DNA of 63,992 nt, the filler included, from a bacterium (lineage in GTDB: Bacteria; JBBIVP01), in NCBI GenBank assembly GCA_037439705.1. It is 8 parts of 8 records of this genome, joined end to end, with 100 filler letters (N's around TTAATTAATTAA, not from the genome) between each part and the next. Parts side by side here need not be neighbours in the genome. Positions count along the whole stretch, not along the records: positions 25,276 to 33,504 come from JBBIVP010000093.1; 7 more parts are not named here. One strand, given 5' to 3'. Under the pieces are notes generated by a model, which was not told the origin of the DNA, searched no databases, and worked only from the letters and a program-made list of their open reading frames with translations. Position 1 is the stretch's first letter. The number at the start of each line of letters is the position of its first letter. A program made the translations under genes and the position numbers. Shown here piece after piece: positions 23,911 through 46,958 of this stretch.

Positions 23911-25175
23911 ATGAAGAGAATTTTTTTGCCAATAGGTTTTTTATGCGTTGTCATTTCCTTTGTTTTTTTCCTGGTTAAGACATCAAGGGGTAAAGCACCA
24001 TCTCTTGCAGTTCCATCAACATCTCCAATAACTGTGGATAAGGGAATGAGTTTTGGATGCACAGGCGGCGATTTTCCGAGCATAGATTACAGGAATTATT
24101 ATGTTAATACTTCAACTTCCTGTCCAACAGGAGGAACTGATGCACCATATTGGGGTTTCTGCCAGGACGATGCGTATCGTGGAGAGGTTTTTGATGATGG
24201 AATGTATAGCTGGACAATACCTAATAATACATACAGCACATCACCTGAATTTAATGGATTGATTCAATACTTGGAGGGGCAGATAAGAGAGATGCTTGCT
24301 GGACCGGATGTTATAACAATGCTCAACGGTATGCTTTGCGGTCAGGGTACTCATGCTGCTTCATCATCATCTGTATCAGGTGTAGATGCCTGTGCATCAG
24401 CAGACCTCTGCGTATTTGATGCTGGCAAGGGAGGTTTCAAGAATGCTGGAAATTGCTCATTGGAGGGCTACACAGCAACAAGCTGCTACGGCCCAAACTC
24501 CGGTTCAGGAAATGCAACAGTTACTTATGATTCAAATGGAGATGGAACAAAGGATACAAATTGGACCACAATGAATGATGGATGGCTTGTTTATGCAAAC
24601 AGGGGTGAGGCAAAGATATGGTTCAATCAAGGAGAGGGGAAGATAGAGGCACTCATTGCCCTTTGGGGCGATTCTGAGGCTAAGAGAATCCCTCCACTCC
24701 CACCTGTTGGATATGGCTGGGACCAGAACGACCCAGCAGGAACATCAGAAAATAATAACAGAAACTGGGACAGGACCTGCGTAGAGGCATCGGTGAAATT
24801 GTGTGAAAATAACGGCACCAGATGCCCTGGTGCAGAAGGAGAGTGTGGTGCTGTATATGTTGCTGCAAACCTTGACCTATATGCTGATGCCATTGTTATA
24901 AAGACGAAGATGAGCATAAAGCAGGATACAAATAACAAGAACATAATTGATATATGCCCTGATTTTGACCCATCTACTGGAAAACCAAGCATAAATACAA
25001 CATGGATTGAATTGGTTGACCAAGATATAGAGCCAAATTTAACAGTTGACCTCGGTGTTCTGGGTTGCACCTGCGAGATTGACCCCGATGCATCATTTCC
25101 ACCCGATCCCCTTAATTACCAACTTGCAGGACTGGTTTTTGACTTTCTTTCAAAATTCCTCCATGGAGATTGCAA
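23911..25175 (+). CDS. Secreted Cys-rich hypothetical protein, truncated by the contig end
   Basis: Signal-peptide-like N-terminus, many Cys, DSNGDG Ca-loop-like motif, GGGGGA RBS. Confidence 0.8.
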
Positions 25176-25275
25176 NNNNNNNNNNNNNNNNNNNNNNNNN
25201 NNNNNNNNNNNNNNNNNNNTTAATTAATTAANNNNNNNNNNNNNNNNNNNNNNNNNNNNNNNNNNNNNNNNNNNN
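25176..25275. other. Artificial contig linker
   Basis: N-TTAATTAATTAA-N. Confidence 0.97.
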
Positions 25276-25480
25276 TCGGTCCATACTCCACTAATTTCAG
25301 AAATAGTTTTATAGCCCTTCTTATGTCCCTATGAGCGTGGATCAAAAATCTGTCAACCTCAAGGTCAAGGACGAGGTCCTAAAATTTGTAATGGGGATTA
25401 CCACCTTCTGGAATCATAGCATTTCCTATTGCATTTATGAGCTCTGCCTCTTTAATGCTGAATGCCCTCAAACTGCTCAT
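25276..25480 (-). pseudogene. 5' part of a small gene with an in-frame TAG; resembles gluconate-2-dehydrogenase subunit 3-like proteins
   Basis: MSSLRAFSIKEAELINAIGNAMIPEGGNPHYKF*DLVLDLEVDRFL...LVEYGP; TAG at 25379-25381. Confidence 0.5.
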
Positions 25481-25544
25481 ACTTTAAAATTTCAATAGAA
25501 TTTTTTATTTTTCAATGATTTTCAAAAATTTAAGTGTCATACTT

Positions 25545-25940
25545 TTATTTAATTTTTACATTCTCGCTTATGAACCTTATTATTTCTTCTATGAGGCTAC
25601 CTGCAGGAAATACCTCATCTACTCCCATCCTTTTCAACTTCTTTATGTCCTGGGGCGGAATAACTCCACCGACGAGAAAAAGAACATCTTTCTGAACCTC
25701 TTTTTTTATGAGCCTTAAAACCTTTCTTGTATGCTCTATATGCTCGCCTGATAAAAAAGAGAGTCCTATCACATCTACATCTTCATCAATAGCGGTTTTC
25801 ACAACCTCTTCTGGCTTTAACATCTTTCCGAGATAAATCACCTCAAATCCTGCGTCTCTCAATGCTAAACTCAAAACCTTTATTCCCCTGTCATGCCCAT
25901 CAAGTGAGGTTTTGGCAAGCAGAATCTTTATTCTTTTCAT
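25545..25940 (-). CDS. Cobalamin-binding small subunit of an acyl-CoA mutase
   Basis: LDGHDRG (DxHxxG), SFLSGEH, GGVIP. Confidence 0.94.
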   Translation of the reverse strand: MKRIKILLAKTSLDGHDRGIKVLSLALRDAGFEVIYLGKMLKPEEVVKTAIDEDVDVIGLSFLSGEHIEHTRKVLRLIKKEVQKDVLFLVGGVIPPQDIKKLKRMGVDEVFPAGSLIEEIIRFISENVKIK

Positions 25941-27568
25941 TTTAGTGGGGATTTCAATTTTCCAAGCGGGTCATACCTCATGCGGTAAGCTTCCCTTATT
26001 ATACCCATTATTTCGCCCATAGTGCAATATGCCTTCGCACAATCCACTATGTAGGGAATTAGATTTTTGTCATTCTTCGCAGCTTCTTTAAGAGCGCTGA
26101 GAGTATCAAGAACCTCTTTCCTTAACCTTTTTTTTCTCAAATCCTTTATCTTCCTTATCTGCTCCATCTTCTTTCTCTTTGAAATCCTGTGAACTGGCAA
26201 TGGTTTTGTCTCTTCCTGTGAACGAAAAATGTTGACCCCAACTATGAGTTTTTTTCTCTCCATTACCTCCTTCTGATACTGATAGGCAGACCTGTCAATC
26301 TCTCCCTGAACCCATCCAGATTTTATTGTATTCACCATTCCACCTCTTTTCATTATCTCATCAAGGATTTTGTTCGCCTCCTCTTCAAGTTTGTCTGTAA
26401 GGTATTCAACATAATAAGAACCGCCAAGTGGGTCAGCACATCTTCCAACACCAGTTTCGTATGCGAGAATCTGCTGTGTTCTCAATGAAATTCTTGCGCT
26501 TTCTTTCGTGGGAAGGGCTAAGGGCTCATCATAAGCACAGCAATGAAGGGATTGAACCCCTCCGAGGACCGCTGCTAATGCTTCATAAGCAACCCTTATT
26601 ATGTTGTTCAAAGGTTCCTGAGGAACGAGAGAACATCCAGCAGTGTGAACTCCAAATTTGAACCTCATCGTCCTCTCATCCCTTGCTCCATATTTTTCCT
26701 TCATCAACTTAGCCCACATCCTCCTCATTGCCCGCAGTTTTGCCACTTCTTCAAATATGTCAATATGGGCTGAACAATAAAAAGCAATTCTGGGTCCAAA
26801 CTCGTCAATTGACAATCCCCTTTTTAAACAGGCATCAATGTATGCCATTGCCATGGCGAAGGAAAAGGCAATCTCCTGAGCAGCATTCAATCCATTTTCT
26901 CTCAGATCATAGGCATTGATGTTCTGGGGATAAAAAAGTGGCATATTTTTTGTGCAGAAATCAATGATATCTGTAGCAGTTTTCAGGCAGAGTTCTGTAG
27001 GAGTGAACTCTTCAGGATATCCGCAAAAACGATGGTGAAGTGGGTCGTTCTGTATTGTCCCCCTTAGATTTCTTATATCAATTCCCCTCTTCTGAGCAGT
27101 AGCAATGTAAAAGGCAAGGATAACAGGAGAAGCATAGGATGTGATGACGAGTGACGAACTAACCTTATCAAGAGGAATTCCATCCATCATTTCCTCCATA
27201 TCTGGAAGCGAACAAAGGGAAGTTCCCTGAACCCCAACCTCATCCCTTACATCGGGATGGTCTGCATCAATCCCTGTCATTGTGGGTATATCAAAAATCA
27301 CATCAAGTCCGGTTTCTCCTTCTTTAAAAAGGAACTTAAATCTTTCGTTCGTCTCTTTCGGTGTGCCGAACCCGCAGACCGCTCTCATTGTCCACAATCT
27401 TCCCCTGTACATATTCGGATATATTCCTCTCGTATAAGGAAATTCTCCTGGAAGGGATTTATCCTTTTTCCTTATGTCATCATTCGTATAGAAAACCTTC
27501 ACAGGATAACCTGACCAGGTTCTATCTTCCTCAATTTTTGAAAAATAGCCATATCTTCTTTCTTTCAT
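25937..27568 (-). CDS. Acyl-CoA mutase large subunit (methylmalonyl-CoA mutase family), non-canonical specificity residues
   Basis: PGEFPYTRG, GTIQND, FEEVAKLRA, LGGVQSLH..AYDE, DPLGGSYYVE, IVGVN. Confidence 0.93.
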   Translation of the reverse strand: MKERRYGYFSKIEEDRTWSGYPVKVFYTNDDIRKKDKSLPGEFPYTRGIYPNMYRGRLWTMRAVCGFGTPKETNERFKFLFKEGETGLDVIFDIPTMTGIDADHPDVRDEVGVQGTSLCSLPDMEEMMDGIPLDKVSSSLVITSYASPVILAFYIATAQKRGIDIRNLRGTIQNDPLHHRFCGYPEEFTPTELCLKTATDIIDFCTKNMPLFYPQNINAYDLRENGLNAAQEIAFSFAMAMAYIDACLKRGLSIDEFGPRIAFYCSAHIDIFEEVAKLRAMRRMWAKLMKEKYGARDERTMRFKFGVHTAGCSLVPQEPLNNIIRVAYEALAAVLGGVQSLHCCAYDEPLALPTKESARISLRTQQILAYETGVGRCADPLGGSYYVEYLTDKLEEEANKILDEIMKRGGMVNTIKSGWVQGEIDRSAYQYQKEVMERKKLIVGVNIFRSQEETKPLPVHRISKRKKMEQIRKIKDLRKKRLRKEVLDTLSALKEAAKNDKNLIPYIVDCAKAYCTMGEIMGIIREAYRMRYDPLGKLKSPLK

Positions 27569-29025
27569 TTCTCATCTCCTTTAATTCCTGCTATCTCCTT
27601 AGCAAGTCTCTTTTTTTCTTCCCAGTTCACAAGCCTGTTAATCATACTTTTCTGCGCCTCCGGAGGTCCTGCCCCCTGCATTGATTCTACCATATATCCA
27701 ACTGCCCCAAGACCAAACAGGAGGTTCTCTATGAGCCTTATTATCCTTATTTTATCCTCTGTTTTTACACCTTCTTTTCCCTGAAGGTATTTTTCTAAAA
27801 ATTTTCCTGCTTCGGGATGGAAGAAATCCTTTTCGGATGGCAATGTGCCGATTATTCCGCCTGCAATATCCACTGCAAGCTCAGCCATTCTATACGGGAG
27901 TTTCGCCACATTGAGCTTGCACACATTTCCAAGGAGTAAATTTGTGAAATATGTGCCTTGAGAGGTCATTTCTCCTTCCGCTCCCGCTGCAATTCCGCAG
28001 GAATAAATGGTTTCGGTGAGGTAAACCATTTCAATAAGTTTTTCCTTTATGTGGGGAAATTTCATCAGTCCGTTGTATTCAGCGAGAAGGGCAACTGCTC
28101 CTATCAAAACATCAGAAACCCCTGCTTTGCATCCTCCGTAGGTCTGTCTGTGATTTGAGCCAAATAAATAAGGTATTCTTCCAGCCCATTCATACTCTCC
28201 GCAGAGGAAAACTCTTTCCCACGGAACGAACAGGTCATCAAAAATCATTATCGTTTCCTGTGCCCCAAATCTGTAATTTCCTACATCTATTTTGCATCCC
28301 TCAAGTTTTCTTGAATCGGAAAACTGCCTTCCATATATGTGTATTATCCCTTTCTCATCAGAAGGAACCACAAAGGCTACCGCATACTCCTTATCCTCCT
28401 CCCTCATAGCACAGGTGGGAGCAACAAATGTCCAGTGAACATTTATTGAACCGCTCTGATTTGCTTTCGCTCCCCTAACAATTATTCCTTCTGAATTCTT
28501 CTTTATCACTCTTAGATAGAGGTCTTTGTCCTTTTGTTCATGGGGTCTCAAGCCCCTGTTTCCCTTTACATCCGTCATAGCAACCCCCACATTCAAATCC
28601 TTCGTCTGCACCTCCTTCATAAATTCAATGAACCTTCTATGGTATTCCGTTCCCAGTTTCTGATCCATTTCCTTTGTTACAATGTAAAGGGCGTTGGCTG
28701 TATCCATGGTCGTGCACCTCTGAAAACAGGTTGCAGTTTTCTGACCGAGTAGCCTGGCCATCTTCACCTTTTTTATAAGGTCCTCTTTTGTTTGATAAAT
28801 GTGGGTAAACCTGTTCACCCTCTCTCCTGTTATTCCTGAAATAGCGGTCATAATATCCTCATACTCAGGACAATGGGCAAGTTCGTATGTCATAGCCACT
28901 GCATTTCTTGAGGGAATGATTATTGGATGCTCTGATGGATTTTCAACCCTTTCGCCAAAAAGGTAAACGATGGGCTTCATCTTTTTAAGACTTTCAATGT
29001 ATTCCTTACCGTTCATTAAAGCCAT
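27565..29025 (-). CDS. abfD: 4-hydroxybutyryl-CoA dehydratase / vinylacetyl-CoA isomerase homolog (FAD, [4Fe-4S])
   Basis: CFQRC, AMTDVKG.R, HRQTYGGCK and VES..GAG motifs. Confidence 0.85.
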   Translation of the reverse strand: MALMNGKEYIESLKKMKPIVYLFGERVENPSEHPIIIPSRNAVAMTYELAHCPEYEDIMTAISGITGERVNRFTHIYQTKEDLIKKVKMARLLGQKTATCFQRCTTMDTANALYIVTKEMDQKLGTEYHRRFIEFMKEVQTKDLNVGVAMTDVKGNRGLRPHEQKDKDLYLRVIKKNSEGIIVRGAKANQSGSINVHWTFVAPTCAMREEDKEYAVAFVVPSDEKGIIHIYGRQFSDSRKLEGCKIDVGNYRFGAQETIMIFDDLFVPWERVFLCGEYEWAGRIPYLFGSNHRQTYGGCKAGVSDVLIGAVALLAEYNGLMKFPHIKEKLIEMVYLTETIYSCGIAAGAEGEMTSQGTYFTNLLLGNVCKLNVAKLPYRMAELAVDIAGGIIGTLPSEKDFFHPEAGKFLEKYLQGKEGVKTEDKIRIIRLIENLLFGLGAVGYMVESMQGAGPPEAQKSMINRLVNWEEKKRLAKEIAGIKGDEK

Positions 29026-29059
29026 CTCTTCACCTCCTATATTTTACTAAAATAACATC

Positions 29060-29464
29060 TCAAAACTCCGTTTCTATAGATGATACGATATTTGCAAAAA
29101 TGTTTGTGGCTTTTAATAACTTCATAGCTCTCACAGTATCCCCTTCAAACTCTATATTTCCTGATGTAAATGCTTCAAGTGGAGAGACCTCCCCCATCAC
29201 AATTTTTGAGAGATAATCGTAGGTGGTGGTTGTCTTGAAGTCAGCATCCTTTACATCTTCAAATATAACATCAACCAGTTTCCCTTCTTTGAACACATAA
29301 CAGAAATATATCTCAGGACCCCCTCCATGAACACTTTCTGGACAGTCGGTTATGTGGTATAAAATTTTGGCAGTCAACTCCTTCCCTTCCCTTTCCATAT
29401 CTGAACAGAGATTTGTCCTCCTTTTTACCTCCTCAAACCATTCCTTTGTAAGAAATTTTATCAT
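29060..29464 (-). CDS. SCP2 sterol/lipid-binding domain protein
   Basis: KFLTKEWFE...ADF.....Y....KIV.GE.SP..AF.SG.IEFEGD; start re-called to ATG 29464 (GGAGG RBS). Confidence 0.8.
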   Translation of the reverse strand: MIKFLTKEWFEEVKRRTNLCSDMEREGKELTAKILYHITDCPESVHGGGPEIYFCYVFKEGKLVDVIFEDVKDADFKTTTTYDYLSKIVMGEVSPLEAFTSGNIEFEGDTVRAMKLLKATNIFANIVSSIETEF

Positions 29465-29474
29465 GTCAACCTCC

Positions 29475-30593
29475 TTATAAAAATTCTGCAATGAATTCAG
29501 TAAGGTCTCCAATGTAATAATTCACCCTTTTTCCAGCCTTTCTGAGGTTCATTATACAAAATGGGCAAGATGTTAGAAGGTAATCAACTCCTTCAGGAAC
29601 ATCGTTAAGTCTCTCCTCCGCTATCTCCCTGGCAAGGAGTGGAAAACCCTCCATTACCCCTCCACCTGCACCACAGCACCAGGCATTTTCCTTACTCCTT
29701 TTCATCTCAAGAAAGGTTATCCCTTCAATTGATTTTATTATATCCCTCTGAGCGTCAAAGACCTTTGCATGCCTTCCGAGATAACATGGGTCGTGATATG
29801 TTACTACCGCTCTCCATCCCTTTTTTGGTTTGATTGCTTTTTCCCTTATTTTCCTTTTCAGAACCTCAACTATATGGCTCACCTTCACTCCATTCAATTT
29901 ATAGTCGATTTTTAGAGTTCTGTAGCAATGACTGCATATAGCTACTACCTCTTTTATTCCCCTTTCTTTTATCTTTGACAGATTTTCATCCCTTAATGAA
30001 TTAAATGTGAAAAGGTCTCCTACCCTTTTCGCAAAATCCCCACAGCATATTTCATCTTTGAATACAAGAGGGTCAATTCCGCATCTCAAAAGGAGCTCAA
30101 TGGATTTTTCAAGAATGTTCTTTAGCCCCCTGTCATAATAGAAACTGCATCCTATGAAAAGGAGGATTTTGCTGTTCTCATTTTCATATTCATAAGAAAA
30201 TTCTTTCCCGCCGTAAAGGTTTTTGAAATTTTTGAGGTTTTCCAAAAATTTTTTGTGTACTTCAAGTGGAGCTATTCCGCTATTAAATGCTTCCTCCCTC
30301 AATGCAAAAAAAATGGAAAGCGTATCAACTGATGATGGGCAATGTGCCATACAATTTCCACAGGTCAGGCAGTGATATATTCTTTCAAAGAGTGGCCCAT
30401 CAAAATTTTTTATCCTCCCCTCATAAATCAATCTTGAAATTCCAACCTTTCCTCTCGCAAAGAATGTATCAATTCCGTATCTTTCTCCCATAGGGCAGAG
30501 CAGATTTACCCCACTTTTATAATCAACTGCCCTCCTGCAGAAACCACACCTTGTGCAGGTATATATTTCTTCTCTTACCCTTTCAATTGCCAT
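29475..30593 (-). CDS. Fe-S oxidoreductase with two [4Fe-4S] motifs and CCG domains (GlcF/HdrD-like)
   Basis: CTRCGFC, CLTCGNC...CP, CCG, YHDPCYLGR, CCGAGGG, CPFC. Confidence 0.9.
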   Translation of the reverse strand: MAIERVREEIYTCTRCGFCRRAVDYKSGVNLLCPMGERYGIDTFFARGKVGISRLIYEGRIKNFDGPLFERIYHCLTCGNCMAHCPSSVDTLSIFFALREEAFNSGIAPLEVHKKFLENLKNFKNLYGGKEFSYEYENENSKILLFIGCSFYYDRGLKNILEKSIELLLRCGIDPLVFKDEICCGDFAKRVGDLFTFNSLRDENLSKIKERGIKEVVAICSHCYRTLKIDYKLNGVKVSHIVEVLKRKIREKAIKPKKGWRAVVTYHDPCYLGRHAKVFDAQRDIIKSIEGITFLEMKRSKENAWCCGAGGGVMEGFPLLAREIAEERLNDVPEGVDYLLTSCPFCIMNLRKAGKRVNYYIGDLTEFIAEFL

Positions 30594-32001
30594 AAAAATC
30601 AATGCCCATCATTCCTGGATGTAAAATTCCATTCGGATCAAGAACTTTTTTGATTTTTTTTAGTATTTCATGAAGTGGTTTTATCTGCGGAACTATCCAC
30701 GGATGAGCAAGAATTCCCATCTGATGGTATGCGCCGCCTGCAAGGGCATTCCTTCTGTAAAACTCAGAAGCCATCTTCTTTGCAATTTCTAATACCTCCT
30801 CGTTATCTTCTCTGTAATGAAATACAGATGAAAAGAGGAAAGAATTGGAGACTGCAAATGCCACTATTTCATATCTCATCCCATATTTCTGAATCTCAAA
30901 TTCTTCAAAAATCTCAAGGGCTATTTTTCTAAATTTCATAAAATCAAGAACTGGAATTCTCACGCACGGAAAGATGATCGGGTAATAAAGCTCTTTCGGA
31001 GGCTTCAAACCTTTCGCAAGGGCAATTGCGGATTGAGGCATTATTTCGTAATACATCCTTGAATAATCCTCACCAACATCTTCCCCTCCTTCCTCCTTGC
31101 ATATCTTTTTGACTATTTCTATTTTCCCTTTCACTTCCTCCTTTGTGAATCCATCCACAACAATAAAAAGGATGCCTGCATTTTTCACATTCATTGTGAG
31201 AAATCCGTCAGCATATATAAGGCTTAATGGGATTCTCTTCCACATAATTTTGTGGGAAGCAATTATCCCTCTTTCTATCTCATCGAAAACAAATGTTGAA
31301 AAACCAAGTTCATCGGGTTCAGGAAATAGGTTCAGGGTTATCTCGGTAATAATTCCAAATATGCCATGAGAATTTATAAAAAGTCCGGTGAGGTCTCCAC
31401 CGTGAACATATCTTGAAAGCCCTTTCGGAGAGGAAGGGTTGGCATTGGAACCCGTTCTTATTATCTCTCCGTTCGGAAGAACTACCTCAAGACCGAGAAG
31501 GTTTTCCCCAGTGCTTCCATATTTCGCAGAGCAATATCCCATTGAGCCTATCGCACAAGCGCCACCAACAGTTGCTGAATAGGAAGATACCGGACCAAGA
31601 AAGCCCGTTGTCATTTTATATTGGTGAAGAAGGGAATTAAGTCTTGACCATGTAATTCCGGGCTGGACGCTCACGCTGAAGTTTTTTTCGTCTATCTCAA
31701 GAATCCGATCCATTCCTGTAAGGTCAAGGACTATTGAATTTTCCTTTAAAGGAATTGTGCATCCAGCAGGATGAGTTCCAGAACCGCGCGGAACAAGGGG
31801 AAGAAGGTGCTCATTGGCAAGTTTCACAATTTTTGAAACCTCACCTGCACTCCTCGGTCTCACAACCGCCATCGGCGGAACTCCCTTGAGGGGAGATGTA
31901 TCCCTTGAATAAACGAGAAGGTCAGCGGGATGGGAACTGACATTTTCGGGTGAGCATATATCCTTCAAAGCATCTATTATTTCTTCTTTTTTAAACCTCA
32001 T
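30583..32001 (-). CDS. FAD-binding oxidoreductase (VAO/GlcD/alkyl-DHAP synthase family)
   Basis: PRGSGT, VQPGI, ATVGG, GLEVVLPNG, GIFGIITE, DPNGILHPG. Confidence 0.9.
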   Translation of the reverse strand: MRFKKEEIIDALKDICSPENVSSHPADLLVYSRDTSPLKGVPPMAVVRPRSAGEVSKIVKLANEHLLPLVPRGSGTHPAGCTIPLKENSIVLDLTGMDRILEIDEKNFSVSVQPGITWSRLNSLLHQYKMTTGFLGPVSSYSATVGGACAIGSMGYCSAKYGSTGENLLGLEVVLPNGEIIRTGSNANPSSPKGLSRYVHGGDLTGLFINSHGIFGIITEITLNLFPEPDELGFSTFVFDEIERGIIASHKIMWKRIPLSLIYADGFLTMNVKNAGILFIVVDGFTKEEVKGKIEIVKKICKEEGGEDVGEDYSRMYYEIMPQSAIALAKGLKPPKELYYPIIFPCVRIPVLDFMKFRKIALEIFEEFEIQKYGMRYEIVAFAVSNSFLFSSVFHYREDNEEVLEIAKKMASEFYRRNALAGGAYHQMGILAHPWIVPQIKPLHEILKKIKKVLDPNGILHPGMMGIDFYGN

Positions 32002-32002
32002 C

Positions 32003-33504
32003 TCAATCGAAAGAATTGGCTATCTCAAAGGCGGAAATAATGGCGTGGTCTATCTGCCTCGGCACTATAGCGTCTCCACATCTTTCAACATTCATCCCAA
32101 TCTTTTTTAGTTCAAAATATAAATCCGCATTGGGCATGTCGGGGCATATAAGGACTACTTTATCACAGGGTATCTCCCTTGTTGAAAAGGTCATCGTGTT
32201 CATCACAATGCATCCATTATCGGTAATTTCCTCAACTGCTGAGAAGGTTTGAATTTCTCCTCCGAGCATGAGGATTTCCTGAAGAAGAAAAAAGGAAGAG
32301 ATGCTTTCCCCTTTTCCATATTCAAGGATATTTTCATAGGGGTCAAGGAGGATAACTTTTTTTCCCTTTTCAACGAGAAACCTTGCGCAATATATCCCTT
32401 TATGGTATGGAGCGGTGGAATACACCACAATTCTTTCTCCATCTACATTTCCATCTCTTTTATAAACATCTTCCCATGTTAGCAGGTTTTGATGATGGGG
32501 ATTTTTTATCTCTGGAAATGGCGGGGGAACACCCCTTGATATCTTTGAGCCTGTTGCAATAACCACAAAATCAGGATTAAGAGAAAGGACAAACTCTGAA
32601 TCAGCAAAAGTTTTTAATTTTACCTCTACATCAATTTCCTCAAGACGAATTTTAAGATGCTCAACAGGTTCAAGAAGGGAATCCCTTTTTGGGGTTTTAC
32701 TTATAAGATTTATCTTTCCGCCAAGTTCCTTCTCCTTCTCAATCAATATAACCTCATGCCCTTTTTCTCTTAGAACCTCCGCTGCCTTCATACCTGCTAT
32801 TCCTCCTCCCACGACAACTGCTTTTTTCTTTGACCTTGCTGGCTTGATTTTCATATACCTCTCTCTCCCTGCGGACGGATTCTGAGAGCAGGAAAGGTGA
32901 AGTCCTGCCCTTATCCTCCCTATGCATCCCTGATTGCATCCCATACATCTTCTAATGAGATGCCCTTTTCCTTCCATCGCCTTTTTTGGAAAATCTGGAT
33001 CGCATATCAGCCCCCTTGTTACAGCCACCATGTCCGCCTTCTTATCCCTTATTATTTCTTCCGCTATCGCTGGAGAATTTATTCTTCCTGCAATTATAAT
33101 TGGGAGATGAACAACAGATTTCATCATTTCTCCGTATCCAGCAAAGCAGGCAACAGGAAAATTCATTGGAGGAGAGATTGTAAAGAATGTGGTATAATTT
33201 CCACATGTTAGCGAGAGGTAGTCCACTTTTCCCAGAGTTTCTATAATTTGTGCCACCTTTTTTGAATATTCTGGCGTTATTCCGTATCCAAGTAGCTCGT
33301 CAACGCACAATCTTACCCCTATCACCATCCCTTTTCCCACTGCTTCATAAACCACTTCTATTACTTCGCACAGAAGTCTTGTCCTTCCCTCGAAATCCAT
33401 TCCGTATTCGTCAGTCCTTCTGTTTGAGTATGGTGAGAGAAATTGCTGAAGGAGATATCCGTGTGCACAATGAATTTCTATCCCATCTGCTCCTGAATCC
33501 ATTT
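32003..33504 (-). CDS. NADH:flavin oxidoreductase (OYE barrel + Fe-S + FAD/NAD domain), N-terminus truncated
   Basis: EIHCAHGYLLQQFLSP..NRRTDEYG, CMGCNQGC, VVGGGIAG. Confidence 0.92.
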
Positions 33505-33604
33505 NNNNNNNNNNNNNNNNNNNNNNNNNNNNNNNNNNNNNNNNNNNNTTAATTAATTAANNNNNNNNNNNNNNNNNNNNNNNNNNNNNNNNNNNNNNNN
33601 NNNN
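33505..33604. other. Artificial contig linker
   Basis: N-TTAATTAATTAA-N. Confidence 0.97.
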
Positions 33605-34242
33605 AGGTATGTAATTGCCTTCCCCTCACTGTTTGTTGATGAGGTAATCGTGTCAAGGTATTCTCCTCCTTCAGGTCCATAGAGTTCAAAAGTTACCTGA
33701 ATTCCTTCAACAGGCTGTCCCGCTGTATCCATCACCTCAAAGGTTACCTCTGAAGATGTTGTTCCACCGCTTCCCTGAATCTGGATAACAGTTGGTTCTG
33801 CGGAAATAAAAACTATGCTTGAAAGTTGCGGAGGAAGAACTGTAATTGTTGCAGTTTGCGTCACATCTCCAGCCTTTGCAGTTATTGTAACATCCCCAGG
33901 GACATCTCCTGATGTATATGTAGCAGTTGCTACGCCGTTTTGATTTGTTGTTGCCTGAGATGGAGACACTGTTCCCTGAGAAGCAGTAAATTCAACAACA
34001 GTTCCCACAGATACAGGACCTCCGTTAACTCCAACAACTGTCGCTGAGATGTTCGCAGTTCCTCCGTGAAGGGATACCTCTGTTGGTGAGACCTCAAGGG
34101 TTATGCTTTGAGGATAATTTTCTGTTCCACCACCTCCACCACCTCCTCCACCGCCACCTCCACCTCCTCCTGATGGTTTGCATCCATACATTAAAACACC
34201 TATCACTGCTCCTATTCCTACCCATTTTTTCACCTTCTTCAT
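33605..34242 (-). CDS. Lipoprotein with Gly15 linker and tandem invasin-type Ig-like (Big-1) domains, truncated
   Basis: Lipobox MYGC; ATTNQNGVATATYTSG..G.VTITA and TNSEGKA Big-1 patterns; AGGAGG RBS. Confidence 0.82.
34126..34170. repeat. (GGN)15 poly-glycine coding repeat
   Basis: 15 consecutive Gly codons (mixed GGA/GGT/GGC). Confidence 0.9.
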
Positions 34243-34374: not shown

Positions 34375-36633
34375 ATGGAAAAAGAGAAAATAAAAAAACT
34401 CTTTGACCCAGAATCAGTCGCTATAATCGGAGCATCAAACATACCAGGAAAATGGGGATTTGGTATAACCTTCAACATAGTAACTGGAGGATACAAGGGA
34501 AGGATATATCCTGTGAATCCATCTGAAAAAAATGTGCTCGGTTTCAGGACATTTTCTTCAATAGAAGAACTGCCTTATGGAATTGACCTCGCTATCATAA
34601 CAATACCGTCTGAAAGGGCAATAAATGCGGTCAGGGATTGTGGTAAAAAGGGAATAAAATGGGTTGTTGTTGTATCTTCTGATTTTGCTGAATCAGGAGA
34701 AGAAGGAAGAAAGAGGCAGGAAAAACTTGTAGAGGTTGCAGGGGAGTATGATGTAAAGCTCATAGGTCCAAATACCATGGGAATATACTCAGCCACATCT
34801 TCACTTCATGCTCTTGGTTCTCCGTTTCAGACAAAAAAGGGGAAAATAGCCCTGGTTTCACAGAGCGGAAATATAGGGGTTCAGATAATGGGGCTCGGAG
34901 AAAGGATTGGACTGGGTTTTTCAAGGTTTTTTGGAAGCGGAAACGAAGCGGTTCTTTATATTCATCATTATGTTGATATGCTTGTTGAGGATGACGAAAC
35001 AGAGATAATTTCCCTTTATGTGGAGGGAATAAGGGAAGGAAGAAAGTTCTATGAAGCGATTAGAAGAGCAATAAAGAAAAAACCTGTGATTATTCTCAAA
35101 TCTGCAACCACTTCTCATGGGGCAAGGGCAGCCCTGTCGCATACAGGAGCGATGGCTACGGACGTCCTTGTTACAAAGGAGATTATAAAAGAAAGCGGAG
35201 CAATTGAGGTTCAAACAACAGAGGAGATGATTGAGATTCTTTCTGGATTTTCTCTACTTCCTGTTCCAAGGAGTAAGAATGTATGCATAATATCCATGGG
35301 AGGAGGATGGGCAGTAGTAGCAGCTGAAGCCTGCGATAGGGAAGGGTTGAATCTTCCACCCCTTCCGGAGAAAGCAAAAACTGAATTGGATGAGATGCTT
35401 CCTCCTTTCTGGAGCAAAGGGAATCCGGTAGACCTTGTAGGAACATTGAGAAGGGAAGTGCAATTCGGTGTCCTTTCTTACCTTTCAGAATTTGATGAGT
35501 TTGATGCATTCATAATCATGGGTTATCTCACAGAAAGGTTCTTTTCTGGTTTTGAGGTTTATAAGAGGATATTCGGGAGGCTCTATAATTTCTTCAAAAA
35601 CTACACGAAATCAGCGGTAAGGCTTCCACTTCTGTTTGTGAGGGGAGCGAGAAAGGGAAGAAAGGAAATAAAAGAAAGGGGAAAGAAGGTTTCCCTTTTT
35701 GATACCAGGGAAGCAAGGCTATGGAGGGATGAATATGCTATTGATATGATGAAAAAGATAATGAATGAAAAGGGAAAACCAGTGATAGCGGTGAGCGGAA
35801 GTAATGAGGCTTCCCAGGAACTTCAAAGGAAATTCTCTGTACTCGTTGCTTCCTCTCCTGAAAAGGCAGCCTTTATTCTATCAAAATTAGCAAAATACGG
35901 AGAGAGGGCGAAAATTTTGAAGAACCTTACATATCCAGAGATTGAACTCAATGAAAAGAAGTTGAGAGGATTTCTTGAGGGAAAGAAAACCCTTGATGAG
36001 TATGAAACCAGGGAGTTCTTGAGACAGGCAGGGCTTTCAGTGGTTGAAGAAAGGATTGTTCAGACGGAAGAAGAAGCTTTAAGGGTGGTAAAGGAAATTG
36101 GTTATCCAGTTGTTATGAAGGTCATTTCTCCTGATATTCTTCATAAAACAGAACTTGGCGCTGTAAAAACAGGGATAGAAAATGGGGATGGGGTTATAAG
36201 GGCTTTTAGAGAGATTGTGGATGCTGTAAAGAAGAAAGCACCTGAAGCCTTTATAAAAGGGATAACCGTTCAAAAGATGGTAAGGGATGGTATTGAACTT
36301 ATTGCAGGTTTTACCGAAGATAGAGTATTCGGAAAAATTCTACTTTTTGGAAGCGGTGGTATAGCCACAGAACTTTTTAAAGATGTTGCTATAAGGGTTC
36401 CACCTTTGAGTGTAGAGGAAATAGGAGATATGAGCAACCAACCCAAAATTTCAAGGTTCTGGAAGGATGGATTCAGGGGAAAGAGGTTTAATTCCGGAGA
36501 GGTGGAAAGGGTTATAACTGTGCTTTCTCAAATAGCGATGAAATTTCCCGAGATAAAAGAGATGGAGATAAATCCATTAATCCTCAATTCTGATGGAGCA
36601 TTCGTTGTGGATGCCCTCTGCATCCTAAGGTAA
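34375..36633 (+). CDS. ADP-forming acyl-CoA synthetase (fused alpha-beta)
   Basis: VAIIGAS, IGPNTMG, SQSG, ALSHTGA (phospho-His), NPVDL, ATP-grasp HKTE.G.V, EINPL. Confidence 0.92.
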   Translation: MEKEKIKKLFDPESVAIIGASNIPGKWGFGITFNIVTGGYKGRIYPVNPSEKNVLGFRTFSSIEELPYGIDLAIITIPSERAINAVRDCGKKGIKWVVVVSSDFAESGEEGRKRQEKLVEVAGEYDVKLIGPNTMGIYSATSSLHALGSPFQTKKGKIALVSQSGNIGVQIMGLGERIGLGFSRFFGSGNEAVLYIHHYVDMLVEDDETEIISLYVEGIREGRKFYEAIRRAIKKKPVIILKSATTSHGARAALSHTGAMATDVLVTKEIIKESGAIEVQTTEEMIEILSGFSLLPVPRSKNVCIISMGGGWAVVAAEACDREGLNLPPLPEKAKTELDEMLPPFWSKGNPVDLVGTLRREVQFGVLSYLSEFDEFDAFIIMGYLTERFFSGFEVYKRIFGRLYNFFKNYTKSAVRLPLLFVRGARKGRKEIKERGKKVSLFDTREARLWRDEYAIDMMKKIMNEKGKPVIAVSGSNEASQELQRKFSVLVASSPEKAAFILSKLAKYGERAKILKNLTYPEIELNEKKLRGFLEGKKTLDEYETREFLRQAGLSVVEERIVQTEEEALRVVKEIGYPVVMKVISPDILHKTELGAVKTGIENGDGVIRAFREIVDAVKKKAPEAFIKGITVQKMVRDGIELIAGFTEDRVFGKILLFGSGGIATELFKDVAIRVPPLSVEEIGDMSNQPKISRFWKDGFRGKRFNSGEVERVITVLSQIAMKFPEIKEMEINPLILNSDGAFVVDALCILR

Positions 36634-36713
36634 AAATTTAACCTCAGTTAGTTTTCGTTTTTTATTGAATTAAAAATTCAGTGTAATTAAATAGGTTTTC
36701 AAGAGGTGGAGAT

Positions 36714-37097
36714 TTGGAAAAGGGATTTGCAATTGGTGGTATTTTTCTCATAATTGCAGTTGGATTTGTATTCATATCTCTCATTCTTTCAAGGCTTCTT
36801 CAACGGAGAAGGTATACGCCTGAAAAATTCATTCCATACGAATGCGGAGAGAATCCAATAGGAAGTGCATGGATTCAGTATAACTTCCGTTATTACATTT
36901 ATGCCTTATTATTCCTAATTTTTGATGTTGAGGTGATTCTTCTTTATCCTGTTTCCATTGTTTTTAAAAAATTGAAATGGCTCGCCTTCTTTGAGATATG
37001 GTTATTCATCCTTATTCTGTTCCTTCCATACATTTATATGTGGCGCAAGGGAGACCTTGAGTGGTTTATAAAGAGGGTGAGAAATGGGAATAATTGA
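36714..37097 (+). CDS. nuoA: Complex I subunit A
   Basis: [25 protein letters not shown]. Confidence 0.95.
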
Positions 37098-37566
37098 TAG
37101 AAAACTTCCTGATAACAAACTCTTTGAGGGTCTTGACCTTGTAGTTAACTGGTCAAGGAAATCTTCCCTCTGGTGGCTCACATTTGCAACCGCTTGCTGT
37201 GGAATAGAACTCATGCAGACAGGAGCCTCAAGGTTTGACCTTGACAGATTTGGTTCTGTTTTCAGAGCCTCTCCCAGGCAGGCAGACCTGATAATAGTTG
37301 CAGGAACAATAACCCTAAAGATGGCGGAAAGATTGAAAAGATTGTACGAACAGATTCCTGAACCAAAATATGTGATTGCTATGGGAAGTTGTGCCAATAC
37401 TGGTGGGCCCTTCATCAAGGACAGTTATTCGGTTTTAAGAGGTGTTGATAGAATTATTCCTGTTGATGTTTATGTCCCAGGATGTCCTCCAAGACCTGAA
37501 GCCCTTATTGAGGGAATAATGAAACTTCAGGAAAAGATAATGAAGGAAAAGGTTTTCAGGAAATGA
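37084..37566 (+). CDS. nuoB: Complex I subunit B
   Basis: [27 protein letters not shown]. Confidence 0.97.
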
Positions 37567-38039
37567 CGGGTGAGGAGATATACAGAATTCTCAAAGAGAA
37601 ATTCGGGGAAAAAATTGGTGAATTGAAGGATGGACCACAGCCATCCATAGAAATAAAACCCGAAATTGTTAAAGAGGTGGCAAAATTTTTAAAGGAAGAC
37701 GAAAAACTTCTTTTTGACCACCTTGTGTTTGTAACTGCAACTGATGAAAAAACAGCAATGAAGGTTCTGTGGTGTCTTTTTTCATATACCTATAAACATT
37801 ATTTAATTATTAAAACCGAGGTTTCAAGGGAGGCTCCTGAGGTTGATAGCGTATGTGATATATGGGCAACTGCTGAATGGCATGAAAGGGAGACATACGA
37901 CTTTTTTGGGATAATTTTCAGGGGTCATCCGGATTTGAGGAGAATTCTTCTTCCGGACGACTGGGAGGGATATCCATTGAGAAAGGATTACATTCCTCCT
38001 GACTTCTATCACGGGATAGATAACAGGTATAAGAGATGA
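37563..38039 (+). CDS. nuoC: Complex I subunit C
   Basis: [29 protein letters not shown]. Confidence 0.96.
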
Positions 38040-39148
38040 TAAGGTCTCAGGAAATGTTAATAAATATGGGTCCTCAGCATCCTTCAACCCATGGTGTGTT
38101 GAGGCTTATTCTCAAGACTGATGGAGAATTTGTTTATGATGTTGAGCCATGTATTGGATACCTTCACAGGAGCCTGGAAAAAATAGCAGAAAATTTTAAC
38201 TATCCACAATTTATTCCAATAACTGACAGGCTTGATTATCTTGCTTCCATAAATTGCAATTTTGCATACTGTCATACTGTTGAAAGGCTTATGGGGATTG
38301 AGGTTCCATTGAGGGCTCAATACATAAGGGTTATTGCTTGCGAACTGAACAGGATTGCTTCCCATCTCATAATGTTTGGGACAATGGGAATGGATACAGG
38401 CGCTTTCACTCCATTTCTTTATGCCATAAGGGAAAGAGAAAGAACAAATGACCTTCTTGAAGAACTGACGGGTGCAAGGCTTACATACAATTACATAAGA
38501 ATAGGCGGTGTCGCCCATGACCTTCCCGATGGATGGAAAGAGAAGTGCATTGAATTCATAAATTATTTCAGACCGAAGATAAAGGAATACAACGATTTGC
38601 TCACTTACAATGCTATATTCATGAAGAGGCTCGGCGGAGTTGGTGTTCTTACTAAAGAAGACGCAATAAATTATGGAATAACGGGGCCGAATCTCAGGGC
38701 AACGGGTTTTAAATGGGATTTAAGAAAAGATATGCCTTACTCTTCTTATGATAAGTTTGAGTTTGAGGTCCCGGTGGGAACAGGCGAGGGCGGAAAGCTG
38801 GGAGATGCCTTTGACAGGTATATGTTGAGGATTAAAGAGATGATGGAAAGTTCAAAGCTCATTGAACAGGCTTTACTTTCACTTCCTGACGGAGAGATTA
38901 TGGCGAAACTATCGCGGGTTCTGAAGGTTAAAGAAGGAGAGGTTTATTTTGGTGCAGAAAATCCGAGGGGAGAGCTCGGATTTTACATAAAGAGTAATGG
39001 TGGAACAAAGCCTGAAAGGGTAAAGATAAGGGGTGCTTCTTTCTCACACATTCATGCTTTCAAAAAGGTCCTTCAGGGAGTTCTTATTCAGGACCTTGTA
39101 GCAATCGTTGGAAGTTTTGATATCATATTGCCGGAGTCAGACAGGTAA
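38036..39148 (+). CDS. nuoD: Complex I subunit D
   Basis: [32 protein letters not shown]; no NiFe CxxC motifs. Confidence 0.97.
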
Positions 39149-40257
39149 TGGAAAGACTTATTGTAAAACTTTCTGTCAAGCTTGGTTTCGGTTCTCCTCC
39201 TGATTGGGCTATTCTTCTTATCATAGGACTGATTGCAGGGATTATTCTTCTCGTTTTTATCCTGCTTTATGAGGGACTCGCAACATATATAGAAAGAAAG
39301 GTTGCTGGAGATATTCAAGTTAGATACGGACCGAACAGGGTGGGACCATACGGAATCCTTCAATTTGTAGCAGATGGGTTAAAACTCTTTTTTAAAGAAG
39401 ATATAATCCACTCTCAGGCAGACAGGCTTCTTTTCAGACTTGCTCCCTACATAGTCTTTACAGGTTCTTTTGTCGGTCTTGCTGCAATTCCATTTTCTGT
39501 TGAATGGTATGCAGCAAAATTGAATGTAGGCGTTTTGTTCATAGTTGCAACTACTTCCCTTGTTGTTGCAGGGCTTGCGATGGCGGGGTGGGCACAGGCT
39601 AATAAGTGGGGACTTCTCGGGGGGATGAGGTCTGTTGCTCAGATTGTAAGCTATGAAGTTACAGTGGGAATTGCTTTACTTGTTCCAATTATTCACATAG
39701 GTAGCCTTGACCTCCAGCAGGCAGTCCTTTATCAGAAAAAAGGGTGGGGAATACTCGGCTGGAATATCTTTCATGACCCGTTCACATTCATTGCTTTTTT
39801 CATATATTTTATCGCAGCACTTGCAGAATGTAATAGGACGCCTTTTGACCTTCCTGAGGGTGAATCCGAGCTTGTTGCTGGATACTTTACAGAATATACC
39901 GGGTTCAGGTTCGCTTTCTTCTTTATGGCAGAATACGGAGATATGTTTGTGGTGAGTGCACTTGCCAGCTGTCTGTTTCTCGGAGGATGGCACATTCCTT
40001 TCATAGAAGAGTTGATAAAAATTCCTGTTTTAAAGAACATTCTTGGCTCTATTGTGTTAATTGCAAAAGTTGTGGTTCTAATTCTGATAATGATGTGGTT
40101 TAGGTGGACATATCCAAGGTTGAGGATTGACCAGCTTATGGCGCTTAACTGGAAGAGGCTCATCCCGATAGGGCTTCTCATGCTTCTTTGTGCTTCTTTG
40201 TGGGATCTCGTTTTTAATGGAAAGCGAATTTTTGAACTCCTGGGAATTATAAAATGA
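39148..40257 (+). CDS. nuoH: Complex I subunit H
   Basis: ERK...Q.RYGPNR, ADGLKL, PFDLPEGESELVAG, PRLRIDQ. Confidence 0.97.
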   Translation: MERLIVKLSVKLGFGSPPDWAILLIIGLIAGIILLVFILLYEGLATYIERKVAGDIQVRYGPNRVGPYGILQFVADGLKLFFKEDIIHSQADRLLFRLAPYIVFTGSFVGLAAIPFSVEWYAAKLNVGVLFIVATTSLVVAGLAMAGWAQANKWGLLGGMRSVAQIVSYEVTVGIALLVPIIHIGSLDLQQAVLYQKKGWGILGWNIFHDPFTFIAFFIYFIAALAECNRTPFDLPEGESELVAGYFTEYTGFRFAFFFMAEYGDMFVVSALASCLFLGGWHIPFIEELIKIPVLKNILGSIVLIAKVVVLILIMMWFRWTYPRLRIDQLMALNWKRLIPIGLLMLLCASLWDLVFNGKRIFELLGIIK

Positions 40258-40721
40258 AGGCAATAAAAGAGATTGGCTGGGCTATAAAAACATTAATTGT
40301 TGGGCTTTTGATAACCGCCAAATACTGGTTCAAACCAGGCTCCGAGATCACCGTGCAGTATCCTGATGAGAGACTCATGTCTTTTCCGAGGTTCAGAGGA
40401 ATTTTATTCAACGATGTTGAAAGATGCACAGGATGTGGAATATGCAAGATGACATGTCCAATAGATTGCATAGAGATAGAGAGCTATGGAAAGGGAAAGG
40501 CAAGAAGACCAATCCATTATGCAATAAGGATAAGCGAATGTATGTTCTGTGGTTTGTGTGTTGAAGCCTGCCCTGAGGAATGTCTCATTCATACAGATAG
40601 ATATGAAGGAAGTGTTTACGAATTAAAGGACCTTTACTACCAGTTTGTATCTGAGGAACAGAAAAAGAGGTTTATGGAACTTGCGGAAAAGGGCATTCCG
40701 GTTAAGGAGGAGAAAAAATGA
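40254..40721 (+). CDS. nuoI: Complex I subunit I
   Basis: TVQYP, RFRG, two CxxCxxCxxxCP motifs. Confidence 0.95.
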   Translation: MKAIKEIGWAIKTLIVGLLITAKYWFKPGSEITVQYPDERLMSFPRFRGILFNDVERCTGCGICKMTCPIDCIEIESYGKGKARRPIHYAIRISECMFCGLCVEACPEECLIHTDRYEGSVYELKDLYYQFVSEEQKKRFMELAEKGIPVKEEKK

Positions 40722-41212
40722 AGTTCCTTATTCTGGGAATTATCTTTGCTTTTACAGCTATCTCTGGTTTTTACACGGTTATTACGCCGAACCTTGTTCG
40801 TTCTGTATTCGGACTTTTTTTCACCCTCTTCGGTGTTGGAGCCTGCTATGCGTTTCTTGGAGCGGATTTCCTTGCGGTTGTTCAGGTTATCCTTTATGTT
40901 GGAGGAATAGCGGTTCTTATACTTTTTGCAGTTATGCTTTCAAAAAATCCCTATCGTCCCGGTATATTTGGAAGTAAAAAAAGAAGCATTTTTTCAGGAC
41001 TGATTTCCCTTTTTATATTTCTAATTCTACTCTTTGCCATCTCCCAAATTCCTTCGCCTCCAGTAGCCTCAAGGTCAATACCTTTAACCGGTGAAATAGG
41101 TGGAAATTTTCTCACCAATTATATTCTTCAGTTTGAGATTGTATCGGTTCTCCTCCTCTGCGTTCTTATCGGAGGAGCATATATTATAAGGAAGGAGATA
41201 AAAGGTGATTGA
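40718..41212 (+). CDS. nuoJ: Complex I subunit J
   Basis: ADFLAVVQVILYVGGIAVL.LFAVML, FEIVS. Confidence 0.94.
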   Translation: MKFLILGIIFAFTAISGFYTVITPNLVRSVFGLFFTLFGVGACYAFLGADFLAVVQVILYVGGIAVLILFAVMLSKNPYRPGIFGSKKRSIFSGLISLFIFLILLFAISQIPSPPVASRSIPLTGEIGGNFLTNYILQFEIVSVLLLCVLIGGAYIIRKEIKGD

Positions 41213-41525
41213 GTTCAAAGTAATGCTTTCCCTTTCTGCCCTCCTTTTTTCTCTCGGAATTTTTTCCTTGCTTTCAAAGAAAAATGCGGTGTCCATCCTT
41301 ATAGGAGTTGAACTTATTCTCAATGCCTGCGCTCTGAATTTTGCTGTTTTTTCTAAGTTCAATTTAATGAAAGCTGGAATTCTTGACATCACAGGATACA
41401 TATTCTCAATTTTCATAATAGTCCTCGCAGCAGCAGAGGCTGTTGTTGCTCTTGGAATATTTATTGCAATCTATAAATTTTTGAAAAACATAGATGTGGA
41501 AAAGGCTGACCTGATGAGGTGGTAG
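41205..41525 (+). CDS. nuoK: Complex I subunit K
   Basis: ELILNA..LN, AAAEAVVAL. Confidence 0.94.
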   Translation: MIEFKVMLSLSALLFSLGIFSLLSKKNAVSILIGVELILNACALNFAVFSKFNLMKAGILDITGYIFSIFIIVLAAAEAVVALGIFIAIYKFLKNIDVEKADLMRW

Positions 41526-41821: not shown

Positions 41822-41921
41822 NNNNNNNNNNNNNNNNNNNNNNNNNNNNNNNNNNNNNNNNNNNNTTAATTAATTAANNNNNNNNNNNNNNNNNNNNNNN
41901 NNNNNNNNNNNNNNNNNNNNN
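41822..41921. other. Artificial contig linker
   Basis: N-TTAATTAATTAA-N. Confidence 0.97.
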
Positions 41922-46946: not shown

Positions 46947-46958
46947 TTTCCTTCTCCT

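Follow-up and report, generated by a model that had tools for sequence, protein, structure and literature searches.

The DNA analyzed here (the window) is a 63,992-base stretch from the bacterial genome assembly GCA_037439705.1, joined from eight contigs, and the subject of this report is a tightly packed run of seven co-directional genes that fills exactly one of these contigs (positions 25276-33504, 8.2 kb). All seven open reading frames (ORFs) lie on the minus strand, and the families assigned to them in a first-pass annotation made from the sequence alone were confirmed by searches with Pfam and NCBIfam models. In the order of transcription, they encode a FadH-type Fe-S flavoenzyme of the Old Yellow Enzyme (OYE) class (32003 to at least 33502, cut at its 5′ end by the contig end at 33504; Oxidored_FMN and Pyr_redox_2 domains), a divergent FAD flavoprotein of the VAO/GlcD superfamily (30583-32001; FAD_binding_4 and FAD-oxidase_C), and an Fe-S protein of the GlcF/HdrD/YdiJ C-terminal type (29475-30602; Fer4 (Fer4_8) and two CCG domains). 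These are followed by a small protein with the SCP2 fold (Pfam SCP2; 134 amino acids if read from an internal ATG, 29060-29464, with the longest ORF starting from a TTG at 29512) and by a homologue of AbfD, the 4-hydroxybutyryl-CoA dehydratase/vinylacetyl-CoA isomerase (27565-29025; HpaB_N/HpaB; 1U8V). The last two genes encode the large subunit of a split B12-dependent acyl-CoA mutase (25937-27568; MM_CoA_mutase, 612 bits) and its B12-binding small subunit (25545-25940; B12-binding, 92.8 bits; TIGR00640, 144 bits; motif DGHDRG).

Successive genes are separated by 1, -20, -38 (or +10 from the internal ATG), 34, -4 and -4 bases, where negative values denote overlapping frames. A scan of the block for promoters and terminators gave no internal signal above shuffled expectation (17 versus 17.7, and 12 versus 8.0), which is weak evidence for a single transcription unit. 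The 5′ end of the operon, noted as missing in the first-pass annotation, is absent because the contig stops inside the OYE gene, which is short of ~157 codons when compared with a 656-amino-acid homologue in the metagenomic locus L037.

Searches with the AbfD sequence against collections of species genomes and metagenomes returned 92 loci, which were inspected for a mutase gene within up to 10 kb, or less where the contig ended. Two of these loci, L037 and L038 (both from metagenomes), are close relatives with AbfD proteins that are 93% identical to that of the window. Both carry the identical seven-gene order with proteins of 78-93% identity, which supports the earlier proposal of an operon that pairs a radical dehydratase of the AbfD type with a B12-dependent acyl-CoA mutase. 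The 134-amino-acid SCP2 ORF is also present in L037. Compared with these relatives, every gene shows synonymous divergence (dS) of 1.1-2.6 and a ratio of nonsynonymous to synonymous divergence (dN/dS) of 0.02-0.11, with a value of 0.02 for the SCP2 gene, and the seven genes are under strong purifying selection. The preservation of gene order despite saturated silent divergence (dS >1), together with the low dN/dS values, indicates that the arrangement is no accident and that all seven genes are functional.

The L037 locus extends 10 kb further upstream than the window contig, and this region carries four more co-directional genes whose frames overlap or abut. The first encodes a Hydantoinase_A protein (an acetone-carboxylase-like beta subunit, truncated by the edge of the locus), the second a Hydantoinase_B protein (alpha; 641 bits and E 2e-191 against the solved acetone carboxylase alpha subunit, 5SVB/5M45), the third an Acetone_carb_G protein (gamma), and the fourth a DctP-type solute-binding protein of the tripartite ATP-independent periplasmic (TRAP) transporter family, whose stop codon overlaps the start of the full-length OYE gene. 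The operon in L037 consists of 11 genes, which run from the carboxylase-like beta, alpha and gamma subunits through the TRAP protein and the FadH-type, VAO/GlcD-type, CCG, SCP2 and AbfD genes to the large and B12-binding subunits of the mutase. Although the three-subunit acetone carboxylase set is present in L037, the window contig ends before that region. The seven genes of the window may well lie at the downstream end of a longer catabolic operon of this kind, and we tentatively adopt this view. At the other end of the block, ~1 kb of L038 that follows the B12 subunit gene lacks a convincing ORF, indicating that the operon ends there.

The mutase large subunit and its small partner have the folds expected for a B12 acyl-CoA mutase, as evident by the scores for PF01642 (612 bits) and PF02310 (92.8 bits) and by the DxHxxG motif, which is present as DGHDRG. 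The subfamily-domain models TIGR00641 and TIGR00640 are also passed. However, the protein reaches only 467 bits with the equivalog model for methylmalonyl-CoA mutase (MCM; NF006944), for which the cut-off is 876 bits. Its best solved relative is HcmA (4R3U, 434 bits), followed by human MCM (371 bits) and the Propionibacterium enzyme (309 bits).

Pocket residues were read from HMMER alignments to 1REQ/5REQ/2XIJ and to the HcmA chain, and from a MAFFT alignment in which mutases from Desulfobacterota, Chloroflexota and Bacilli genomes were aligned with the query as controls. Four residues of MCM that we take to be its substrate-binding or catalytic positions (P. shermanii numbering) are all replaced, including the carboxylate-binding Tyr89 and Arg207. 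Tyr89 (RQ-Y-AGF) corresponds to Val64, Arg207 (FMV-R-NTY) to Tyr184, which lies behind a one-residue insertion, His244 (GY-H-MQE) to Asp221, and Gln330 to His308. At a fifth position, the hydroxyl-binding Asp of HcmA (ST-D-FD) is replaced by Ile91, such that the pocket of the window mutase reads V64-I91-Y184-D221-H308.

In the same alignment, ordinary split mutases read Y-A-R-H-Q and isobutyryl-type enzymes F-A-Q-H-Q, where the Phe and Gln are presumably the residues found at the two specificity positions of isobutyryl-CoA mutase. The clade of the query reads V/L-I-(Y/F/W/I)-D-H. When only three positions were scored (V/L, I, Y/F/W/...), the non-canonical pattern was present in 121 of 121 sequences, consisting of the query and its best 120 homologues (52-90% identity) from a search of 5.8 billion proteins. 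A fourth type, I/L-V-S/T-N-Q, in which Asn replaces the catalytic His, occurs in four Bacilli loci (L141-L144). In L141 (5008-11126), this mutase lies within a cluster encoding GntR, MeaB, mutase, B12 subunit, a short-chain dehydrogenase/reductase (SDR) and an AMP-ligase, which has the same layout as the rcm/hcl cluster in the literature (PMC7176365). Given this match, I/L-V-S/T-N-Q was taken as the RCM type, and the Bacilli enzymes are probably (R)-specific 2-hydroxyisobutyryl-CoA mutases.

The window mutase resembles HcmAB of Aquincola tertiaricarbonis (4R3U) in its split into a large and a small B12 subunit and in the aliphatic residue at the position of MCM Tyr89 (Ile in HcmA, Val here). 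It differs from this enzyme in that the hydroxyl-binding Asp is Ile, the Gln is Tyr, and the conserved His/Gln pair is Asp/His; it also lacks an adjoining ligase or MeaH-type chaperone gene. In the search for the context of a 2-hydroxyisobutyric acid-CoA ligase and MeaH, no ligase or MeaB gene was found on the window contig or in the L037 locus. The V-I-Y-D-H signature likewise departs from the isobutyryl-type controls and from the RCM-like type. Therefore, judged from its residues, the pocket appears to fit none of the characterized types with which it was compared (MCM, isobutyryl-CoA mutase and the two hydroxyisobutyryl types), and the database label 'methylmalonyl-CoA mutase' is, by the same residues, wrong for the clade to which it belongs. 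The loss of the carboxylate-binding Tyr and Arg in favor of apolar or aromatic residues would fit an acyl-CoA substrate that carries no free carboxylate, for instance one with a branched alkyl or a hydroxyalkyl group. Moreover, the joint change of His244 to Asp and Gln330 to His suggests that the catalytic acid has been moved rather than lost.

By comparison, the AbfD homologue appears orthodox. Over its full length it can be aligned with the enzyme from Clostridium aminobutyricum (1U8V, E 1e-170) and with that from Nitrosopumilus (6VJR, E 1e-159). The residues that we take to be the ligands of the [4Fe-4S] cluster (Cys99, Cys103, His292 and Cys299) and the catalytic residues (Tyr296, Glu257 and Glu455) are all identical to those of 1U8V, as are R90, Q101, K300 and A460, and T190 is replaced by Ser. 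The AbfD and mutase large-subunit frames overlap by 4 bases, and by this arrangement AbfD is predicted to be translationally coupled to the mutase. The C. aminobutyricum enzyme differs in this respect from the one described here. The clostridial cluster, which we take to include 4-hydroxybutyrate CoA-transferase and dehydrogenase genes, has no counterpart at this locus, where neither gene adjoins AbfD.

The coupling to a B12 mutase sets the window AbfD apart from the other homologues inspected as well. None of the other 90 AbfD loci (≤70% identity) holds a mutase within the stretch of up to 10 kb that was covered, and the other six genes of the block are also absent from them, save for one weak GlcD-like match in L088. 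Likewise, AbfD is absent from 30 of 30 Desulfobacterota mutase loci that were checked. The conserved synteny for which the first-pass annotation proposed a check is thus present within the lineage, where L037 and L038 keep the order, and absent beyond it from the loci examined. The 90% clusters of AbfD and of the mutase have nine longest-contig sizes in common among their members, and contigs of 14,869 bp are the source of an AbfD at 72% identity as well as of a mutase at 63%. From these equal contig sizes only, co-location of the two genes in further assemblies is suggested. The nearest AbfD outside the lineage (70%; L039, 6833-10809) is flanked by two Amidohydro_2 genes and lies beside a 3-hydroxyacyl-CoA dehydrogenase gene, with no mutase, flavoprotein or SCP2 gene.

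The OYE gene matches FadH/BaiCD-type models at positions 153-645 only. Its product has an FMN domain, an FAD/NAD(P) domain and the Cys motif CMGCNQGC...C (CxxCxxxC...C), as found in members of the FadH/enoate reductase family. Among solved structures it is nearest to 2,4-dienoyl-CoA reductase (1PS9, 232 bits) and to 2-naphthoyl-CoA reductase (6QKG, 220 bits), which makes an enoyl or dienoyl CoA ester its likely substrate.

The flavoprotein is considerably more divergent. It scores 133 bits with FAD_binding_4, only 30 bits with the cap domain FAD-oxidase_C, 134 bits with its best solved relative, mitochondrial D-lactate dehydrogenase, and 167 bits with the glcD model TIGR00387, whose cut-off is 568 bits. 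In a poorly aligned region, Phe/Ser/Tyr occupy the positions of the His/His/Glu residues of D-lactate dehydrogenase, which we take to form the metal site in D-2-hydroxyacid dehydrogenases. Among 1.84 billion representatives, only 551 proteins reach E 1e-30, and the nearest full-length neighbor beyond its own 50% cluster is 39% identical, with two truncated matches at 45-46%. A match to this GlcD-like protein at E ≤1e-60 was found in one of 401 sampled Desulfobacterota genomes.

The CCG protein carries a CxxCxxCxxxC dicluster motif (4Fe-4S) and two CCG motifs (Pfam CCG, 98.7 bits in two stretches), and its best solved match is to residues 409-714 of the 1042-amino-acid Fe-S reductase 9OJN. Because it matches the Fe-S part of 9OJN, and because many relatives of the flavoprotein are fused forms of ~900 amino acids, the flavoprotein and CCG protein would constitute a split flavoprotein/Fe-S dehydrogenase, in which the CCG protein is likely the electron-transfer partner. 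No GlcE-like gene is present in the block, which holds the FAD domain protein and its CCG partner. Pfam recognizes the SCP2 protein weakly (26.9 bits, cut-off 21.3), and the assignment is backed by a protein-language-model atlas in which 28 of 30 feature matches fall in SCP2 clusters (score 0.94). Elsewhere in the window, on a different contig, lies a second pair of FAD_binding_4 (510 amino acids) and CCG (344 amino acids) genes (46497-49526, minus strand), which is distant from that of the block (34% and 30% identity) and is followed by a 149-amino-acid ORF without BLAST likeness to the SCP2 gene.

Relatives of the mutase are also found in Desulfobacterota, where 20 of the 401 sampled genomes match at E ≤1e-170. 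These copies share the V/L-I-aromatic-D-H signature and are 55-58% identical to the window mutase. In contrast to it, they fall into a different sub-branch, with the motif KGRYCG in place of HHRFCGYP, mostly lack an adjoining small subunit, and never accompany AbfD. We read 20 of the best-scoring Desulfobacterota places with their flanks and counted the neighboring families: acyl-CoA dehydrogenase was present at 12 of the 20 loci, enoyl-CoA hydratase at 11, SDR at 9, thiolase at 8, and a ChsH2-type OB-fold protein and a MaoC hydratase pair at 5 each. A FadH-type gene lies within three of the 30 mutase loci and directly adjoins the mutase in two. These neighbors point to a function of the clade's mutases in the beta-oxidation of unusual acyl-CoAs, which would agree with an apolar pocket and a branched substrate. 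Five of the genomes (G275, G217, G376, G123 and G247; 2.8-5.1 Mb) show a striking expansion of paralogues, with 31-38 first-look candidates for the mutase family in each, of which three per genome were scored.

Taken together, these data could well reflect an operon by which a small acyl unit, either branched or derived from a ketone, is broken down as far as crotonyl-CoA, and we put this forward as a tentative reading. The compound being degraded is probably new. In such a pathway, a small ketone or an oxo- or hydroxy-acid would be imported and activated, in L037 by ATP-dependent carboxylation. The CoA esters would then undergo redox steps, in which the FadH-type enzyme would reduce an enoyl or dienoyl group and the flavoprotein/CCG pair would carry out a dehydrogenation with transfer of electrons to an Fe-S acceptor. 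A branched acyl-CoA without a free carboxylate would next be rearranged by the mutase, and from its linear product, a 4-hydroxy- or 3-enoyl-CoA, the coupled AbfD would form a beta-oxidation intermediate of the crotonyl-CoA type. SCP2 might carry the acyl-CoA or an apolar intermediate.

One specific version of this scheme is that the natural reaction of the mutase converts 3-hydroxyisobutyryl-CoA to 4-hydroxybutyryl-CoA, which is passed to AbfD to yield crotonyl-CoA. By analogy, this rearrangement would be the CH2OH counterpart of that between methylmalonyl-CoA and succinyl-CoA, but we consider it a long shot. In a limited literature search, we did not meet the term '4-hydroxybutyryl-CoA mutase', nor did we find a paper on an operon that joins an acyl-CoA mutase, 4-hydroxybutyryl-CoA dehydratase and acetone carboxylase.

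Several observations weigh against a pathway from a small ketone-derived or branched unit to crotonyl-CoA. The adjacency of AbfD and the mutase is limited to their own lineage in the loci examined, and the acetone-carboxylase part is known from one relative only. In addition, the 13.7 kb seen encode neither an enzyme for CoA activation (ligase or transferase) nor a thiolase or an acyl-CoA dehydrogenase, so that the individual steps of the pathway cannot be written down. Furthermore, carboxylation of acetone followed by thiolysis requires neither a mutase nor AbfD.

Database names would suggest a more ordinary role, given that homologues of the two radical enzymes are called methylmalonyl-CoA mutase and 4-hydroxybutyryl-CoA dehydratase and that the mutase passes the TIGR00641 and TIGR00640 models. 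An MCM and a 4-hydroxybutyryl-CoA dehydratase could act on succinyl-CoA and 4-hydroxybutyrate in succinate/propionate fermentation or in CO2 fixation of the 4-hydroxybutyrate type, and an ADP-forming synthetase at 34375-36633 has sub-threshold likeness to the archaeal 4-hydroxybutyrate-CoA ligase. However, this explanation is largely refuted by the sequence and seems highly improbable. The four MCM positions read Val/Tyr/Asp/His where true MCM-type controls carry Y, R, H and Q, the score with the MCM equivalog model is far below its cut-off, and the block is without an epimerase, a carboxylase, MeaB or succinate-semialdehyde enzymes. The synthetase sits on another contig and the host is bacterial. 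The same bacterial host, together with the non-canonical mutase and the lack of companion enzymes on the contig, is at odds with the 3-hydroxypropionate/4-hydroxybutyrate and dicarboxylate/4-hydroxybutyrate cycles, and the first-pass annotation was accurate in finding no correspondence to the gene sets of 4-aminobutyrate fermentation, propionate metabolism or the former cycle. That annotation had instead favored an isoprenoid, steroid side chain or ether-lipid acyl-CoA as a lipophilic branched substrate, with SCP2 serving as the lipid carrier and the VAO-type enzyme acting on a lipid alcohol. The SCP2 gene is indeed present and strongly conserved, the mutase pocket is apolar or aromatic, and the Desulfobacterota paralogues lie beside genes for ChsH2-type OB-fold proteins, MaoC hydratases and SCPx-type thiolases that are typical of the beta-oxidation of branched compounds and steroid side chains. 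These paralogues, however, come from the other sub-branch at 55-58% identity, and the block itself encodes no long-chain acyl-CoA ligase or dehydrogenase, thiolase or hydratase. Moreover, AbfD retains the residues of a C4 enzyme, and the first genes of the L037 operon encode an acetone-carboxylase-like enzyme and a carboxylate-binding TRAP protein, which are tied to small polar substrates. A lipophilic substrate was proposed from SCP2 and the VAO fold alone, and we now consider it quite unlikely, since the carboxylase and TRAP protein of L037 suggest a small polar ketone or acid. The broader proposal of an O2-independent route for a branched acyl-CoA fares better, in that a novel route of this type with a mutase other than MCM is supported.

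The genes might also form a mosaic of unrelated units that adjoin one another and serve no single pathway: one that carboxylates ketones, one made up of the flavoprotein/CCG dehydrogenase and SCP2, and the pair of AbfD and mutase. Such an arrangement would fit the finding that no pairing recurs outside the lineage in the loci examined, the near absence of close relatives of the flavoprotein, and the occurrence of a distant FAD_binding_4/CCG pair by itself at 46959-49526 of the window. Nevertheless, we regard a mosaic as unlikely, given that frames overlap or nearly abut along the entire block and that the order is retained at saturated synonymous divergence; the scan that yielded no internal promoter or terminator signal above chance adds weakly to these points.

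The operon can also be compared with known systems for ketone degradation. Sulfate reducers such as Desulfococcus biacutus and Desulfosarcina cetonica are described as using a thiamine diphosphate (ThDP) enzyme, an RcmAB-like mutase and an SDR dehydrogenase, and are explicitly stated to lack acetone carboxylase (PMC7888143, PMC7176365). The window block, in contrast, has no ThDP enzyme, MeaB or SDR, and its mutase reads V-I-Y-D-H rather than the I/L-V-S/T-N-Q of the RCM-like type from Bacilli. Judged by this gene content and these residues, the window operon is not the ThDP/RcmAB ketone system of sulfate reducers. The L037 operon shares with AcxABC of Xanthobacter autotrophicus and Aromatoleum aromaticum (5SVB, 5M45) the beta-alpha-gamma order, an alpha subunit that scores 641 bits, and a gamma subunit of the Acetone_carb_G family. 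It differs in that a TRAP binding protein and seven CoA-ester or redox genes follow in the same operon. We know of no characterized acx operon with a TRAP protein and seven such genes. The block combines known enzyme families in a new way around an orphan mutase.

Few kinds of B12 acyl-CoA mutase have been characterized, namely the methylmalonyl, isobutyryl, ethylmalonyl, two hydroxyisobutyryl and pivalyl types, and each newly characterized kind has opened a pathway or an engineering route. Because a mutase of an orphan clade is found here beside AbfD, whose chemistry is narrow and well understood, and in L037 beside a ketone carboxylase, the candidate substrates are reduced to a list that can be screened. 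If the mutase were indeed to act on 3-hydroxyisobutyryl-CoA, then the operon would provide an O2-independent route from branched C4 units (of the valine, isobutyrate or methacrylate type, or derived from ketones) into central metabolism. Such a reaction has not yet been described in nature, and it would give a first means of approaching the function of B12 mutases in a very large orphan branch. The wrong label carried by these proteins is also of consequence wherever the metabolism of anaerobic bacteria from sediments and the subsurface is reconstructed; some of these bacteria have dozens of copies.

The boundaries of the contigs in the window were located with a script, which found seven joints of the form N44-TTAATTAATTAA-N44 (8450-8549, 16836-16935, 25176-25275, 33505-33604, 41822-41921, 50049-50148 and 58237-58336) and hence eight contigs, seven of ~8.1-8.4 kb and one 5.7-kb piece at the window end. 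Because the window is a chain of joined contigs, genes beyond 25276-33504 are unusable as genomic context for the block. These other contigs encode bacterial-type MetK, a sugar transferase, an O-antigen-ligase-like protein, protein K of a type II secretion system, CheB and an LGT-like protein. The presence of bacterial-type MetK, secretion protein K, O-antigen ligase and LGT markers indicates that the host is an uncultured bacterium of the Gram-negative type and not an archaeon. The closest relatives of MetK are 87-92% identical and the next are at most 73%, with the best taxonomically named matches (65-69%) coming from Deltaproteobacteria, Myxococcales, Dadabacteria and Deferrisoma. Relatives of NuoD, NuoH, AbfD and the mutase all include one 2.42-Mb contig, and this common contig suggests that the contig of the block belongs with the remainder of the bin.

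An archaeal host with a 3-hydroxypropionate/4-hydroxybutyrate cycle had at first been inferred from the ADP-forming ligase, but this candidate was dropped because the linkers place the ligase on another contig and the marker genes are bacterial. The protein in question is a fused ADP-forming acyl-CoA synthetase of 752 amino acids (34375-36633, plus strand), whose likeness to the archaeal CoA ligases for acetate, 4-hydroxybutyrate and 3-hydroxypropionate stays below threshold. Directly 3′ of its gene lie nuoA, B, C, D, H, I, J and K (34375-41525 for the whole run, plus strand), with no nuoE, F or G between D and H. ORFs that touch a linker, such as those at 23911-25227 and 33553-34242, are cut genes. 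A glycosyltransferase-like ORF (44267-44689) contains an extra run of 10 N at 44650-44659, which probably marks a scaffold gap within a contig. Finally, an asparagine synthase gene at 60717-62595 (plus strand) is broken into two overlapping ORFs, the first with GATase_7 and positions 2-91 of Asn_synthase and the second with positions 88-354, and the break near 61666-61700 represents a frameshift or an assembly error.

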